From contig JAEOTC010000030.1 of assembly GCA_016840035.1 (NCBI GenBank), forward strand, positions 32,001 to 96,000: a DNA stretch of 64,000 bases, given 5' to 3'. The stretch comes from Candidatus Hodarchaeota archaeon (GTDB taxonomy: Archaea; Asgardarchaeota; Heimdallarchaeia; Hodarchaeales; Hodarchaeaceae). Each line of letters starts with the position of its first letter. Position 1 is the first letter of the stretch. The translations under genes and the position numbers were made by a program. Shown one piece after another: positions 1 through 63,979 of this stretch. The notes below the pieces were generated by a model that saw only the letters and a list, made by a program, of their open reading frames with translations, did no database searches and was not told where the DNA came from.

Positions 1-612
1 ATTCGCTTTTTCGATGATATCCTCAGCAAACTCAACTATCGTACTTTTGGAAATAATTTCAGAAGAAAATTGTGTAAATCGAATACTACCCGGTTTTCCT
101 TTTTTTACGAACACATTTGTACCTTGTTTGATGTGAATGCTCATTGTTTCATTATCAAAAAATTTATCAATTTTCAATTGTTTATCAAGTTGTTTTATCA
201 GTCTTGGTTCGACATATATGGTTTCTACTCCCATTGATTGAGCACTCATATCTTGAATCTTATCCGAAGTAACAAGAATGCCTCCTTCTTTCCATGCTAA
301 TTCACGAATTAATGCATCGATCTCTCCCAGTTCAAATTGGCGTGGTTTTCTTCCTGCTACAGAAAATATAACATCGTTTTCTTCACAGATGGATTTTATT
401 AGTTTAAGCTCTTGGAAACCTTCAGTTCCCTTTTTTTTTTCTTGGTTTGCCTGATTTTCGAGCTCTAAAATAAGTGCAAGATGGATAATCACAGATGATC
501 CTGGAAGAATTTGATCATTTTCAATTAAATTCCTTAATCCTCCATTAATGACCGTAGAAGTGTCTGGAATGTAGCGATTCTGTTCTGAATCGATATTATA
601 TCTTCCTACCAT
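1..612 (-). CDS. PIN-domain ATPase (PINA-type Holliday junction branch-migration ATPase), N-terminal part; runs off window
   Basis: Manual translation from ATG at 612 gives MVGRYNIDSEQNRYIPDTSTVING...ELENQAN...GEIDALIRELA...LVTSDKIQ...FFDNETMSIHIKQG...KKGKPG. These are PIN motifs followed by the PINA linker. The start overlaps the stop of the upstream endonuclease gene. Confidence 0.85.
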   Translation of the reverse strand, partial: MVGRYNIDSEQNRYIPDTSTVINGGLRNLIENDQILPGSSVIIHLALILELENQANQEKKKGTEGFQELKLIKSICEENDVIFSVAGRKPRQFELGEIDALIRELAWKEGGILVTSDKIQDMSAQSMGVETIYVEPRLIKQLDKQLKIDKFFDNETMSIHIKQGTNVFVKKGKPGSIRFTQFSSEIISKSTIVEFAEDIIEKAN

Positions 613-1244
613 CAGATTTCCTCCTCCTCAATGTTATTAGACGGAGAAAACTCATCTTTAAATTCATATTCTAGGTTATTATACTCTAGCTCTAATTGAG
701 AAGCTTGGTAGTATGTGACATCTCCCAACCTATCAATAACAGATAAAAGTAACTTTTTTCTATCAATCTTTGCCTGTTTTACAATTTGATCAAGCAAATC
801 GAGATCAACGTCCTCACCTTCAGGAAGCGGATAAATCACGGTTTTACTTACAGATTCTCCAGGTTTACCCCCTCTTGAGTATATTCTGAACGGAGCAGTT
901 ATTCGAGTGCCAATACTTACCACATATCCTCGATTGCGTAAATCTTTGTAAACTAAATATCGACTCCAAAATTTAGGGTTGAGTTTTGTGAAATGAACCA
1001 CTAGTTCATCTGTGGAAAGAGTTTCTCCCGTTTTTTCTGTTTCTAATACAATCCTCCCTCTATCTAAAAGTAATAATATTTCCTCAGGTTCTAAATATAA
1101 TGTCTCCTCTGAACTCCAACGGCCAAAATACCCATTTTCAAAAATTTCAGTAGCTAGTGGTTTGTTTAATTGTAGCTGAGACATGGACAGACTAAAAGGT
1201 ATAGATGGTGGAGATTCATCTTTGGATGATGGTTCTATTGTCAT
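612..1244 (-). CDS. tRNA-splicing endonuclease, probable non-catalytic (structural) subunit
   Basis: EndA fold motifs LYLEPEEILLL, YLVYKDLRNRGY and VIDRLGDVTYY are present. The GxKFGxDF and catalytic His motifs are replaced (GTRITAPF...GESVSK). Confidence 0.8.
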   Translation of the reverse strand: MTIEPSSKDESPPSIPFSLSMSQLQLNKPLATEIFENGYFGRWSSEETLYLEPEEILLLLDRGRIVLETEKTGETLSTDELVVHFTKLNPKFWSRYLVYKDLRNRGYVVSIGTRITAPFRIYSRGGKPGESVSKTVIYPLPEGEDVDLDLLDQIVKQAKIDRKKLLLSVIDRLGDVTYYQASQLELEYNNLEYEFKDEFSPSNNIEEEEI

Positions 1245-5377: not shown

Positions 5378-5492
5378 TGCGGGGGGTGAGATTTGAACTC
5401 ACGAAAGTCTACACTAACAGATCTCTTCATCTATCTCTTGATGAGAACAAATCTTGAGTCTGTCCCCGTTGACCTGGCTAGGGAACCCCCGC
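5378..5492 (-). tRNA. tRNA-Leu(CAA) with 30-nt intron at 37/38 (5423-5452)
   Basis: Reverse strand reads GCGGGGG...ACAGA-CT-CAA-G[30 nt]A-TCTGT, long variable arm, GTGAG TTCAAAT CTCAC CCCCCGC A. The scaffold is near-identical to the intronless Leu tRNA at 22556. Confidence 0.93.
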
Positions 5493-22543: not shown

Positions 22544-22555
22544 AAATTTTAGTGT

Positions 22556-22640
22556 GCGGGGGTTTCCCAGCCAGGTCAAAGGAGCTAGGTTGAGGTCCTA
22601 GTCGTGTAGGCGTTCGTGAGTTCAAATCTCACCCCCCGCA
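22556..22640 (+). tRNA. tRNA-Leu(GAG), intronless
   Basis: GCGGGGG...CTAGG TT GAG GT CCTAG, variable arm, GTGAG TTCAAAT CTCAC CCCCCGC A. Confidence 0.96.
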
Positions 22641-22800
22641 TTAGCATGTATCACTCTTCTTTTGTTCACAAACCCAGAAACTAATAAGGGGTTGTTGATC
22701 ATTATTTTTATTGCGGAATATTGAATCCAAGAAATTTTTATTATGGTTTGAATTTCTTTGGAAATGAAATCCTCTTAATTGAAATGGCTGGATTTTAATT

Positions 22801-31976: not shown

Positions 31977-32525
31977 TTACGGCCTATTCCACTGGAACAC
32001 GTAGTAACGGATTTGTTGATCAGATAAGACTGTTGCTATTACATATCTTTTTCGAACTGAAGTTGCCAATCTACCAGCTCTAACTAAATCGATAGGCTCA
32101 ATGGTTGATTCCTTCGGAATTATAGAGACTAAAAATGGTGCATGATCAATTCCTGGCCCTCTTCTGTATACGGAAAAATCTGTTCCAAATTTTAGTCCAG
32201 GACGTACAATATATCGTTTTGCTCGTAAGTCTTTATAAACAGTAAATAAATCCTCAAATTTTGTGAATCGTTCTATACAAATTGTTGTGTATTCACTAAA
32301 GGAAAGCTCTCTCTCATCTTCTGTAATTTTTATCTTGTCATCCTCAAGTAAAAACGCCGCTTCTAGCAGGGTTAGTTCTAGAGGTCTTTCAAATCTCGGA
32401 GATTTGGGTTTTCTTATTCCCACAGGCTTTCCAAAGTAACCTAGTTGATAAATTTGACTTCCTTGCTCATGGTTCCAAATAATGACGTGTTTATCCACTA
32501 ATTGAGCTGGAATAGGAGTTTCCAT
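31977..32525 (-). CDS. endA: tRNA-splicing endonuclease catalytic subunit
   Basis: GLKFGTDFSVY(Tyr)RRGPGIDH(His)A...SVRK(Lys). Confidence 0.93.
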   Translation of the reverse strand: METPIPAQLVDKHVIIWNHEQGSQIYQLGYFGKPVGIRKPKSPRFERPLELTLLEAAFLLEDDKIKITEDERELSFSEYTTICIERFTKFEDLFTVYKDLRAKRYIVRPGLKFGTDFSVYRRGPGIDHAPFLVSIIPKESTIEPIDLVRAGRLATSVRKRYVIATVLSDQQIRYYVFQWNRP

Positions 32526-57114: not shown

Positions 57115-57390
57115 TTGAAATTCATGCCAAATGTACATCGACTAAACCTGCGTAATATCCGATCATCGCCTTCAAGTCTCCAAGTAGGTAAAAAAGGTCT
57201 CTCTGAATCCTTCCTTATTGAACTTGAGACCAGGTTAAAGAAGGAAAAGACTGTAAAAATCAAATTTCTGAAAAATTCTCCTTTCAGTTCGCGTCAAGAA
57301 GCCATATCTTCTCTAAGTTTAGTATTAGAAGGTAAAATTAGAGTTCTAGAAACACGAGGGTGGACAGCTATCGTACAAAAACAGAGCTAA
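57115..57390 (+). CDS. yhbY: YhbY/CRM RNA-binding protein
   Basis: LQVGKKGL.E..L.EL...LKK...VKIKFL; RG.T. Confidence 0.8.
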   Translation: MKFMPNVHRLNLRNIRSSPSSLQVGKKGLSESFLIELETRLKKEKTVKIKFLKNSPFSSRQEAISSLSLVLEGKIRVLETRGWTAIVQKQS

Positions 57391-57968
57391 CCACTCTGAG
57401 ATGTTTTTGTACCATAAAGTTGTATCATTAAGATTTCACGGGCTAGAGATTGAAAGGCACGTTTTATTCCAATTCCTGTTGTTGCTACTGTTTCATATAT
57501 GGGGAATTTTGATAGGCTTAATTTTTCGACTAGTTCGGATCGTGTTAAAGCATTTTCAACATCGCGCTTATTTAATGTGATCACTAGAGGAATTGTAGTC
57601 CCCAATTCCTCCCCTAAATGGCCTGTTAATTCCTCAAAGGATTCAAGATTCTCTTGGATTTGATCTGATGAAGAATCCACAACAAATAATATCCCATCCA
57701 CTCCCTGAATTACGATTTTGCGTTGATGTTTATGCCTTTCTTGACCCGCAGTTGTATAAACATCAAATACTACTCCTGTTGTAGCTTGCATGGGTGCAAA
57801 GTCAAAGAAAAGAGTCCGGCCATGGGGATCTGCTAATTGAGTGAATTTTCCTTTTTCGAGCCCATCAACTTTATGATAAAGCCAACCAAGAGTTGTAGTC
57901 TTTCCACAAAGAGAAGGGCCATAAAATACTATTTTAAATCTGTGACGACCTTCTGCGTCTTTTCGCAA
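57387..57968 (-). CDS. Small Ras-superfamily GTPase, MglA-like
   Basis: KIVFYGPSLCGKTT, RTLFFDF, TTAGQ, GVDGILFVVDS, LNKRD, ETVA. Confidence 0.9.
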   Translation of the reverse strand: MRKDAEGRHRFKIVFYGPSLCGKTTTLGWLYHKVDGLEKGKFTQLADPHGRTLFFDFAPMQATTGVVFDVYTTAGQERHKHQRKIVIQGVDGILFVVDSSSDQIQENLESFEELTGHLGEELGTTIPLVITLNKRDVENALTRSELVEKLSLSKFPIYETVATTGIGIKRAFQSLAREILMIQLYGTKTSQSG

Positions 57969-58010
57969 TTAGCTTGGCTCCTTCGTTAACTAGGAGGTTA
58001 AGAGTATTGA

Positions 58011-58535
58011 TTAGAACTTTTCAAGTTCTCGCAATGCGGCTTCAAGTTCATCCTTTTCAAGGCCTGTGCGGACTTCGGGTGATTTGGAAGGAGTGCCTGG
58101 GATTGCTCGAGATGGTTGGCCTGCTAGAAATTCATCAAGAATAGAGCTAAGTTCTTCATTGGCTTTTCTCATAAGTAAACGAATCATACCGATATTTACT
58201 TCAGCATCTGAGATTATTGTTAAAATTCCTCGTCCACAAGCACTGGCAAATATCTTTCCAGTGTCAAATTCTGAGGTAACTATGTCCAATCCACCAATTG
58301 TGAGATTAGATCCTTGTTCTGCTGAAGCCATGAAAACAGCGGAAGCAATCGCTCCAATACCATCCACATCGACAGAAACATAACTAAACTTGGAAACATG
58401 GGCGATCGTTAGGCCAGTCCGGTCGACTAGAATTATTTTTCGAATACCGGGTTCACTTTTAATGATTTTACTGAGTACACTGTCAAACCTTCGAGGATCT
58501 ATCAAACTAGTAATCTCCTGCTTGTCTTTTTCCAA
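58011..58535 (-). CDS. Roadblock/LC7 (MglB-like) protein with C-terminal extension
   Basis: ILVDRTGLTIA...GAIASAVF...VNIGMIRL, then a linker and a terminal helix. Confidence 0.9.
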   Translation of the reverse strand: MEKDKQEITSLIDPRRFDSVLSKIIKSEPGIRKIILVDRTGLTIAHVSKFSYVSVDVDGIGAIASAVFMASAEQGSNLTIGGLDIVTSEFDTGKIFASACGRGILTIISDAEVNIGMIRLLMRKANEELSSILDEFLAGQPSRAIPGTPSKSPEVRTGLEKDELEAALRELEKF

Positions 58536-59583: not shown

Positions 59584-59950
59584 TGTTGATAGATCCGTTT
59601 TACGGATTGATCTTCTTTGGTTTTCATCTATTCACATTCACACAAATCTGACTGAACTAATTGCTCCTTCTAACTTAAATGTTCCCAAATTTTGTTAAGA
59701 ATATTGAAGTAATTTAAATTTAATTTTCAATGTTAAATTTCCTTGATCGTTAACAGATCAGGGGTTTTCCATTAAAATAAGTGTATAAATCATGCGAATC
59801 CACATTTTGGCTGGTGAAATCGCTTTTTTCCGATATTAATTGCAATATATAGAACCTAAGTAACAAGTAAAAACATTCTAAAATAATCATGAGGGGAGTT
59901 TTAATAGATCGCTAGATCAAGTAATTCCAAATCAAACTAAAAATTTGACA

Positions 59951-60116
59951 GCCACTGTGGCTTATGAGATTTTCTATTGATCATCTCGGCAAAGCACGGT
60001 TATAGCGCCTCCTTGGTATTACTCACGGATTTACTGATGAGAAACAAACAGGAGGATGTCGTGGGTTCAAAAAATAGCAATTTGTGGATTACTGTTTGAA
60101 ATTCCCACCAGTGGCT
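59951..60116 (+). tRNA. tRNA-Thr(GGU) with three predicted introns (14/15: 59965-59993; 37/38: 60019-60049; 59/60: 60072-60102)
   Basis: Acceptor GCCACTG/CAGTGGC, anticodon stem CCTCC/GGAGG with GGT, T stem GTGGG/CCCAC. Removing the three inserts gives a 75-nt cloverleaf. Confidence 0.88.
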
Positions 60117-60317
60117 TCATACTTTACTTGATCCATCCTTTTTCTAATGGGAAAATGTCCTTAGACAAGAATTCATTCTTCTAAAAGCTTTTCTTATACA
60201 TTCGATATATTTTAAAATCAAATTCGGGGTATTTACACAGATTCTCCTCCACTAGCTATTTTATCTTGTCATGATTCTGGCTTTTCAGGGAATATCAAAC
60301 ATCAACAAGTAATAATT

Positions 60318-62977: not shown

Positions 62978-63979
62978 TTGGTGACTCTTGCTTTGAGAGA
63001 AAAATACCAAAACGCAAGTAATGCGCTAAATAAACTAAGTAATGCAGCTACCATTAAAGCTAAGCATCTATCTGATGTGGTTATCAAATCTTACTCACAG
63101 TTCCAAGAGATTCGATATCAGAGTGAGACTGTACCTGATATTATTATGCACTCCGATAATAAAAAATCGAATCTAAAAGAAAGTGGGGAAATTCGCGTTG
63201 CTCAGTTATTATCAGCTATTCTATGTGATCAAATAACAGAGAAATCTAATAAGTTGACGGAGGATCTTGAATTTGGAAGTATGGATCTAGATCTTCGTTC
63301 GGAAATATTAGAGCTTCGTGAACAAATAACAAGATTGGAAGAAGTAGTACAAGTTCAAACTAAACTCGCTAATGGAGCACCAGTTTCAACCGAGGGAATT
63401 AAGAACTTGCAAAAGAAGTACGATTCCCGAATTAAACAATTAGAGAATACGCTTCTTCGACAAGAGGGACGTTCACTTACTATAACAGCGTTAGATGCAA
63501 CCCAAAAACCAAAAATATTTGGAAAAGGAAAATTTATTGATAATTTAGCTGATTTAGTTCTTGAACAAGGAAAAACTCTTCGTGCTAGCGCAGGTGGTTA
63601 CATTTCCATGGCAAACCTGTATACTTCGCTGAGAGATAAAGTTCCAGATATAAAATTCTCTTTGAAAGATCTAGAAAAAGCCTGTAAACAGTTAACCAAG
63701 CAATCATTAATCGAAGGGATTTCTACTCAATCTGGAATTAAAATTGTCGAATTTACGCCAGTTTCTCTGGGAAAAGATGCTCGAAGCATATTTAATATCG
63801 CAGTTGAGAAGGGTTACGTTACAATTGAGGAAGTTATGATTCATACCAAATGGGATCAACAGCGAGTAACACGAGTATTAGATAGTCTTGTAAATCAAAA
63901 TATTGCACGAAAAGTATCATCACTTGATTCGGGAGATCAATATTACTTCCCGGGGTTATATGGAGATGATGATTGGTAG
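62978..63979 (+). CDS. ESCRT-II Vps22/Vps36-like (EAP30) protein with N-terminal coiled coil
   Basis: Tandem WH: GGYISM..LY...FS.KDL.KAC..L; KGYVT.EE......W...R...VL..LV....A......YYFPGL, matching the Vps22/SNF8 pattern. Confidence 0.85.
   Translation: MVTLALREKYQNASNALNKLSNAATIKAKHLSDVVIKSYSQFQEIRYQSETVPDIIMHSDNKKSNLKESGEIRVAQLLSAILCDQITEKSNKLTEDLEFGSMDLDLRSEILELREQITRLEEVVQVQTKLANGAPVSTEGIKNLQKKYDSRIKQLENTLLRQEGRSLTITALDATQKPKIFGKGKFIDNLADLVLEQGKTLRASAGGYISMANLYTSLRDKVPDIKFSLKDLEKACKQLTKQSLIEGISTQSGIKIVEFTPVSLGKDARSIFNIAVEKGYVTIEEVMIHTKWDQQRVTRVLDSLVNQNIARKVSSLDSGDQYYFPGLYGDDDW

Follow-up and report, generated by a model that had tools for sequence, protein, structure and literature searches.

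Heavily interrupted tRNA genes have been documented in Asgard archaea since 2024. In Atabeyarchaeia and Freyarchaeia, 92-95% of the tRNA genes are interrupted, over half are multi-intron genes, and some of the interrupted genes were found only through manual structure checks (Valentin-Alvarado et al. 2024, PMC11291895). In a 2026 preprint, Goswami et al. described genes with as many as five introns, repeated intron gains and, for most genomes, two EndA paralogues. They found that about 30% of the intervening sequences in Asgard archaea escape tRNAscan-SE and that most of those missed are in the D-arm; among the missed insertions, a canonical motif was present in 63% of those in the T-arm versus 33% of those in the D-arm (10.64898/2026.10.13.758758). 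Hidden disrupted tRNA genes had been predicted in Asgard archaea by Kaneta et al. 2018 (PMC5829648). The two recent studies (PMC11291895; 10.64898/2026.10.13.758758) centre on Atabeyarchaeia, Freyarchaeia and Jordiarchaeia, and Hodarchaeales are named in the main text of neither.

Here, we describe a locus at positions 59951-60116 of the forward strand of the window, that is, of the whole 64,000-nucleotide stretch of Hodarchaeales DNA that we analyzed. We found that it is very probably a functional, and apparently the only, tRNA-Thr(GGU) gene of its genome, carrying three protein-spliced introns that would be handled by an (alpha-beta)2 EndA and RtcB. Because heavily interrupted Asgard tRNA genes are already in the literature, the locus is a well-supported new example and not a new phenomenon. 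With it, Hodarchaeales join the Asgard lineages in which tRNA genes with multiple interruptions are found, while existing knowledge of the working of such introns is unchanged. A preliminary description of this DNA had placed triple-intron tRNAs mainly in Thermoproteales, a statement that is out of date given the heavily interrupted genes of Atabeyarchaeia and Freyarchaeia (PMC11291895). It had further proposed an under-recognized multi-intron system in an Asgard lineage; the Asgard host stands, but the under-recognition does not, as the subject is already the topic of one study (10.64898/2026.10.13.758758) and was anticipated by another (PMC5829648).

The locus resembles the genes of Atabeyarchaeia, Freyarchaeia and Jordiarchaeia (PMC11291895; 10.64898/2026.10.13.758758) in its Asgard host, in having several introns per gene, in the presence of two EndA paralogues and in repeated gains among close relatives. 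D-arm, T-arm and 37/38 sites are used in both, with weak-motif, annotator-missed introns in the D-arm and mostly canonical bulge-helix-bulge (BHB) introns in the T-arm. In contrast, the introns of those classes have a median length of 22-23 nt as compared to 29-31 nt at this locus, and the Hodarchaeales host shows a lower burden, with a maximum of three introns found, while values in the focal families go as high as 2.2 per gene, with a maximum of five.

Thermoproteales (Pyrobaculum, Thermofilum, Caldivirga), whose two- and three-intron genes enter here through the citations of Sugahara et al. 2008 and Fujishima et al. 2010 in PMC11291895 and 10.64898/2026.10.13.758758, likewise carry BHB introns at non-canonical positions, several per gene, together with an (alpha-beta)2 EndA with the Crenarchaea-specific loop. 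They differ in phylum from the mesophilic, AT-rich genome studied here, and about 28% of their introns fall into families shared across tRNA types (10.64898/2026.10.13.758758), whereas no donor was found for any of the three introns described below. The tRNA-Thr genes of Aeropyrum pernix, which contain standard and non-standard introns, share the isotype and the (alpha-beta)2 EndA type; their transcription and maturation are reported to have been shown experimentally (PMC3241643). The Hodarchaeales gene, predicted from DNA, carries three introns. Last, the D-loop intron of our locus, which is relaxed and has no exon outer helix, is similar to the HBh' intron of Methanopyrus kandleri, which is processed by a heterotetrameric EndA. 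The M. kandleri enzyme has no L1 loop and a constrained substrate range, whereas Asgard EndA has been reported with the loop (PMC5829648).

The locus and its spliced product

The locus lies in a 734-nt gap (59584-60317) that is overlapped by no ORF of 60 aa or more, in keeping with the intergenic setting first described. An A24-type peptidase homologue is encoded upstream and a Gins51 homologue downstream, and genes for an Arf-like GTPase, a Roadblock/LC7 protein, aIF2-alpha and an EAP30/Vps36 protein are close by, which is a typical Asgard neighborhood. Eukaryote-signature genes flank the locus on both sides: the Arf/Ras-like GTPase gene adjoining that for Roadblock/LC7 (57387-58535, minus strand) and the EAP30/Vps36 (ESCRT-II) homologue (62978-63979, plus strand). 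The locus itself consists of four exons and three introns, as follows.

59951..59964, plus strand: exon 1, 14 nt; acceptor 5' strand, positions 8-9, D-stem 5' strand and A14
59965..59993, plus strand: intron 1, 29 nt; D-loop, 14/15; equivalent placement 59964-59992; relaxed BHB
59994..60018, plus strand: exon 2, 25 nt; G15 to A37, comprising the D-loop remainder, D-stem 3' strand, anticodon stem 5' strand and GGT
60019..60049, plus strand: intron 2, 31 nt; canonical position 37/38; relaxed BHB
60050..60071, plus strand: exon 3, 22 nt; A38 to A59, comprising the anticodon stem 3' strand, variable loop with C48, T-stem 5' strand and T-loop bases 1-6
60072..60102, plus strand: intron 3, 31 nt; T-loop, 59/60; strict hBHBh'
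60103..60116, plus strand: exon 4, 14 nt; T60, T-stem 3' strand, acceptor 3' strand and discriminator T; CCA not encoded

In silico deletion of the three introns yields a 75-nt sequence that ARAGORN calls as tRNA-Thr(GGT), with 7/4/5/5 stems, a TTCAAAT T-loop and both G15 and C48, the pair that the preliminary description had reported as restored. The acceptor, anticodon and T stems are perfect, while the D stem consists of three pairs plus a mismatched T13/T22 that is kept in all orthologues. Once the introns are removed, the cloverleaf has the features of a tRNA-Thr(GGU), including a 7-nt anticodon loop with U33 and R37, and the conserved T8, A14, G18-G19, G53, T54-T55-C56, A58, C61 and the R15:Y48 pair are all in place. 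The anticodon and T-loop boundaries are fixed. At the D-loop boundary, a shift of one A (13/14 or 14/15) leaves the product unchanged, and only excision of a 29-nt intron at one of these two positions leaves a legal mature D-loop.

In its intact form, the locus is invisible to the programs that we used, in line with the earlier suggestion that standard scanners could miss it: ARAGORN run on the whole window reports tRNA-Leu(GAG) alone, and a search with all Rfam models, including that for tRNA, gave no match at the gathering score. The gene is missed by ordinary tRNA finders because three short archaeal-type introns split it in four. ARAGORN still calls it when the canonical intron is retained but fails when either the D-loop or the T-loop intron is left in place. 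Similarly, the Rfam tRNA model recognizes an orthologue with the canonical intron alone (L018, 52.5 bits) and one with the D-loop intron alone (L031, 35.9 bits), while orthologue forms carrying two or three introns go unrecognized. A pipeline that misses the gene would report an incomplete tRNA set, as this is the sole decoder of ACC and ACU found in the assembly.

Other kinds of interrupted gene were considered and rejected. The inserts are merely 29-31 nt long and Rfam intron families gave no match, which excludes self-splicing group I or II introns. The locus is colinear and in one place, and hence neither a split nor a permuted tRNA. A C/D-box guide RNA within the anticodon intron was also considered, since TGATGA is followed there by CTGA-like bases; however, these are unconserved in the orthologues and 31 nt is too short.

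Conservation across the genus and apparent need for the gene

We found one orthologue of the locus per congener in 20 species of the same genus, including Ca. Hodarchaeum mangrovi. The 21-nt core of exon 2 is present in 21 GTDB species genomes, nearly all of them Hodarchaeota/Heimdallarchaeota MAGs and among them Ca. Hodarchaeum mangrovi and B3_Heim; the sequences from these genomes are identical to the same-genus orthologues. The full set of three introns is retained in four genomes (L002-L005), with 87-92% identity. Elsewhere in the genus, orthologues with an empty site exist for each intron. L010, L013 and L018 lack the D-loop intron and have an uninterrupted D-arm; G001/L020, G017 and G011/L031 lack the anticodon intron, with exon 2 joined straight to exon 3; and L007, L011, L012 and L014-L019 lack the T-loop intron and have an uninterrupted T-loop. 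For all three introns, every empty-site junction coincides exactly with the predicted splice point. Thus, the intron boundaries are fixed independently of the BHB motif, and the presence/absence pattern across the genus amounts to a motif-free proof of all three. Together with the ARAGORN call on the spliced sequence, it bears out the cryptic tRNA-Thr(GGU) and the 14/15, 37/38 and 59/60 coordinates proposed at the outset.

Conservation follows the same boundaries, with identities across the genus of 89-100% in the exons and 40-93% in the introns. Exon 1 is the same in all but one of the 21 distinct orthologues, and that one carries a compensated T6>C. Among the 19 distinct 75-nt spliced orthologues, three stem pairs are doubly changed (TA to CG; TA to CG or GC; GC to CG or AT) and none is broken, while the remaining substitutions are confined to the D-loop and one T-loop purine. 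The T-loop intron helix also shows a compensated change between L001 and L002. The strongest support for the locus is, in our judgment, comparative, consisting of the empty sites, the conservation and the compensation. We consider that these data already refute a chance cloverleaf produced by the free choice of three deletions in AT-rich intergenic DNA, a reading to which we give no weight. The loop-intron scan described below does yield occasional spurious long-intron models, with four dubious loci in the real genome versus one in the reversed genome. However, the null held no compact model with introns of about 30 nt, orthologues without each intron set the boundaries independently, and the GC content of the exons is 56% as compared to 36% for the genome.

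The genome also appears to need the gene. The assembly measures 4.3 Mb in 293 contigs at 36% GC, is 87% complete and contains 20 matches to the Rfam tRNA model. Whether another Thr(GGU) gene exists had been raised in the preliminary description; neither intron-allowing ARAGORN, the Rfam covariance model, BLAST with the locus nor a structural scan found one in this 87%-complete assembly. When GGT anticodon arms, with introns allowed, were sought by regular expression, about 140 low-quality matches came up, examined in part; only the one at 59951-60116 combined a GC-rich stem with a properly spaced T-arm. The other Thr genes detected by intron-allowing ARAGORN are an intronless Thr(TGT) and a Thr(CGT) with one canonical intron. 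ACT plus ACC account for 32 per 1000 codons, about half of the Thr codons.

These data bear on the possibility that the locus is a pseudogene in decay, derived from a tRNA-Thr gene that accumulated insertions and is no longer processed. Such decay would fit the failure of ARAGORN and Rfam to recognize the intact locus, as well as the relaxed form of two of its three BHB motifs. It is hard to reconcile with exons that are under strong purifying selection over 20 species while the introns drift, with stem changes that are all compensatory, and with a sole Thr(GGU) candidate in an 87%-complete assembly in which ACY codons are frequent. A true decayed copy, found in L008, looks different, with mismatched stems and a truncated T-arm. 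We therefore regard decay as exceedingly unlikely and retain the reading of a functional gene.

The decayed copy in L008 (451-620, plus strand; genome G013) is a degenerate second Thr(GGT) located about 1 kb upstream of the intact gene. Because its acceptor and anticodon stems carry substitutions and the 3' half of its T-arm is lost, it is likely to be a pseudogene.

Splicing motifs, enzymes and proposed processing

We scored the BHB motifs in a standard register: the last four exon bases ahead of the 5' bulge pair with the last four intron bases ahead of the 3' bulge, and each cut falls after the second base of its bulge. Scores were compared with those of 300,000 random genomic placements.

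60072..60102, plus strand: T-loop intron BHB, score (4,5,5); central helix 4/4, outer T stem 5 bp, intron helix 5 bp
60019..60049, plus strand: anticodon intron BHB, score (3,5,1); central helix 3/4, outer helix formed by the 5-bp anticodon stem, hairpin with one mismatch
59965..59993, plus strand: D-loop intron BHB, score (3,0,5); central helix 3/4, no exon outer helix in the standard register, intron helix 5 bp

The T-loop motif, in which two 3-nt bulges flank a 4-bp central helix, is matched by 1 in 300,000 random placements (3e-6). Its strict form had been laid out in the preliminary description (GTGGG/CCCAC, bulge ATT, TTCA/TGAA, bulge AAA, AATAG/CTGTT), which proved exact. The motifs of the anticodon and D-loop introns are relaxed, with 3/4 central pairs plus one 5-bp flanking helix. 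In the anticodon intron, G35 stands opposite a conserved A within the central helix. Since 16% of random placements yield a 3/4 central helix on its own, this motif is of little evidential value when taken alone. A score as good as that of the D-loop motif occurs at about 0.15% (1.5e-3) of placements. The D-loop motif had been described as relaxed from the start, and the pairings then listed exist, including an extra outer helix (A4-G9 with C16-T20) that is present as pairing potential outside the standard register. The other 59/60 introns of the genome (Asn, Gly and Pro) share a YGAAAT 3' end, owing to pairing with the universal T-loop, and their similarity is confined to this end. With one strict and two relaxed motifs, the locus provides ready-made substrates for testing an Asgard (alpha-beta)2 EndA.

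The weakness of the D-loop motif raises the possibility that the gene is functional but that one insertion, most likely this one, is retained, trimmed otherwise or spliced a few bases off. It is favored by the 3/4 central pairs, the missing exon outer helix in the standard register and the position of the 3' junction inside a helix in the minimum free energy fold, and many D-arm insertions are known that have no canonical motif (10.64898/2026.10.13.758758). On the other hand, intron-free orthologues show precisely the D-loop predicted by 14/15 excision, and the mature sequence of one orthologue (L014) is identical to the spliced 75-mer. All five carriers preserve the helix within the intron as well as the base pairing between the intron GGC and the D-stem strand. 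In addition, given established tRNA architecture, a retained 29-nt insert would destroy the contacts between D-loop and T-loop, and broad-specificity (alpha-beta)2 EndA has been reported to cut relaxed motifs (PMC5829648). We thus consider it very unlikely that one of the insertions, the D-loop one being the likeliest, escapes EndA cleavage at its stated junction, and favor removal of all three introns.

The D-loop motif had also been taken to be incompatible with the acceptor stem and so to imply ordered splicing. We found that its central helix competes with the D stem and not with the acceptor stem, since the relaxed motif needs only the D-stem 5' strand. A constrained fold with intact acceptor, anticodon and T stems displays all three motifs together at -45.6 kcal/mol, as compared to -51.8 kcal/mol for the minimum free energy fold. 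Because the D-loop motif forms in one conformer with the acceptor stem intact, ordered splicing is, according to these fold models, possible but not implied.

Both EndA homologues of the genome are encoded in the window, and together they supply the two subunits expected of the host by the preliminary description: an alpha subunit and a beta-like paralogue without the catalytic His.

31977..32525, minus strand: EndA catalytic (alpha) subunit, 182 aa; Pfam tRNA_int_endo_N plus tRNA_int_endo
612..1244, minus strand: second EndA paralogue, beta-like (structural), 210 aa; Pfam matches

Among PDB structures, the alpha subunit is matched best by its A. pernix counterpart (3p1z_B, E 5e-42), in an alignment that runs without gaps through the Crenarchaea-specific loop region. 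This suggests that the L1/CSL region is present. The catalytic Tyr, His and Lys are retained. In the beta-like protein, alignment to the EndA of M. jannaschii places a Val at the position of the catalytic His, and there are weak matches to the structural subunits of A. pernix and N. equitans. As judged from these alignments, the pair agrees with the description of Asgard EndA by Kaneta et al. as an (alpha-beta)2 enzyme with an L1 loop (PMC5829648). The genome also encodes RtcB (C173:5021-6331).

From these features, we infer the following transcription, cleavage and ligation of the precursor. The locus would be transcribed as an RNA of about 166 nt plus leader and trailer, in which the 3' part of each intron would pair with the exon bases just upstream of its 5' splice site to form the BHB. 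An (alpha-beta)2 heterotetramer of the two EndA proteins encoded in the window would cut in the bulges, and the four exons would be ligated by RtcB. RNase P, a 3' nuclease and the CCA-adding enzyme would then complete a 75-nt tRNA, and the finished tRNA-Thr(GGU) would read ACC and ACU. Two flanking elements are candidate transcription signals.

59893..59908, plus strand: putative promoter block; purine-rich, then TATA-like TTTTAATA, centered about 49 nt before the mature 5' end
60139..60143, plus strand: T5 run, 23 nt past the gene

The upstream block is conserved in L001-L005, and a TATA-like AT block occurs at a similar distance in other congeners; as a putative promoter, it would leave a leader of about 20 nt. 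The T5 run is presumably terminator-like, as are those downstream of most orthologues.

Possible intron turnover and the tRNA gene complement

All three intron sites are polymorphic between species of the genus. At the D-loop, the clade of this genome carries the 29-nt intron at 14/15, while most congeners (among L006-L020 and L031) carry an unrelated intron of 45-47 nt at 15/16; the intron at 15/16 in L020 measures 28 nt. For the longer intron, L016 and L017 allow 15/16 only, and L019 and L031 keep the genus-typical G15 only with 15/16; its central helix has 4/4 pairs. Because unrelated introns sit one base apart, the sequences suggest two separate insertions into the same D-loop. G011, which groups with the present clade in an RtcB tree, carries the 15/16 intron alone. 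The species relations come from this tree only, which perhaps mixes paralogues and was used solely to place G011.

The RtcB proteins (L058-L075) of G000, G002, G004, G014 and G011 are set apart from those of other congeners by branches of more than 3 substitutions per site, which reflects either two RtcB forms or a very deep GTDB genus. A further difference among congeners concerns their Thr(TGT) and Thr(CGT) genes (L044-L053, L056, L057), which carry introns of about 31 nt at 59/60 that are absent from the copies in this genome.

No intron donor was found when the locus was compared by BLAST with 61 related genomes. The search returned just 19-22-nt, chance-level matches to parts of the introns (E 0.04-0.5), and one of these, in this genome (C43), falls in coding sequence. 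It is conceivable, although we hold this reading with some doubt, that one tRNA gene records fast and ongoing intron turnover at a few hot spots within a single Hodarchaeales genus, with the D-loop invaded twice, one base apart. Some recent phylogenies place Hodarchaeales closest to eukaryotes. If the reading is true, the genus would offer a natural series in which to trace the arrival of BHB introns, which has been called the central open problem (10.64898/2026.10.13.758758).

To place the locus among the other tRNA genes of the genome, we used a loop-intron scan that proceeds from acceptor pairs to the T-arm and then to the D and anticodon arms, with optional introns, and ends with ARAGORN on the spliced product. 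The scan covers introns in loops and in the variable region and misses genes with introns in stems or junctions. It yielded 32 models in the real genome as compared to one in the reversed-genome null. Four long-span models with three or four introns (C25, C97, C112:1357-1740 and C198), which resemble the null match, and one chimera were discarded, leaving 27 loci. Because introns in stems lie outside the scan model, the counts are lower bounds.

No introns: at least 9 loci
One intron: at least 12 loci
Two introns: at least 4 loci
Three introns: at least 2 loci

Thus, interrupted genes make up at least about two thirds of the parsed tRNA genes, and three is the largest number of introns found in a gene. 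Three tRNA genes lie in the window besides both EndA genes: Leu(CAA) at 5378-5492 (minus strand) with one intron, Leu(GAG) at 22555-22641 (plus strand) with none, and the Thr gene described here. Outside the window, tRNA-Asn(GTT) at G000:C28:56412-56577 (minus strand) is the other gene with three introns and is interrupted in the same three loops: by 30 nt in the D-loop, 33 nt at 37/38 and 30 nt at 59/60, each intron having a 4/4 central helix. Its paralogue at C105:83-217 carries two introns. In addition, ARAGORN detected an intron-containing tRNA with a CTA (amber) anticodon at G000:C184:61714-61821 (minus strand) and a tRNA-Sec(TCA) with a 48-nt intron at G000:C71:6372-6508 (plus strand).
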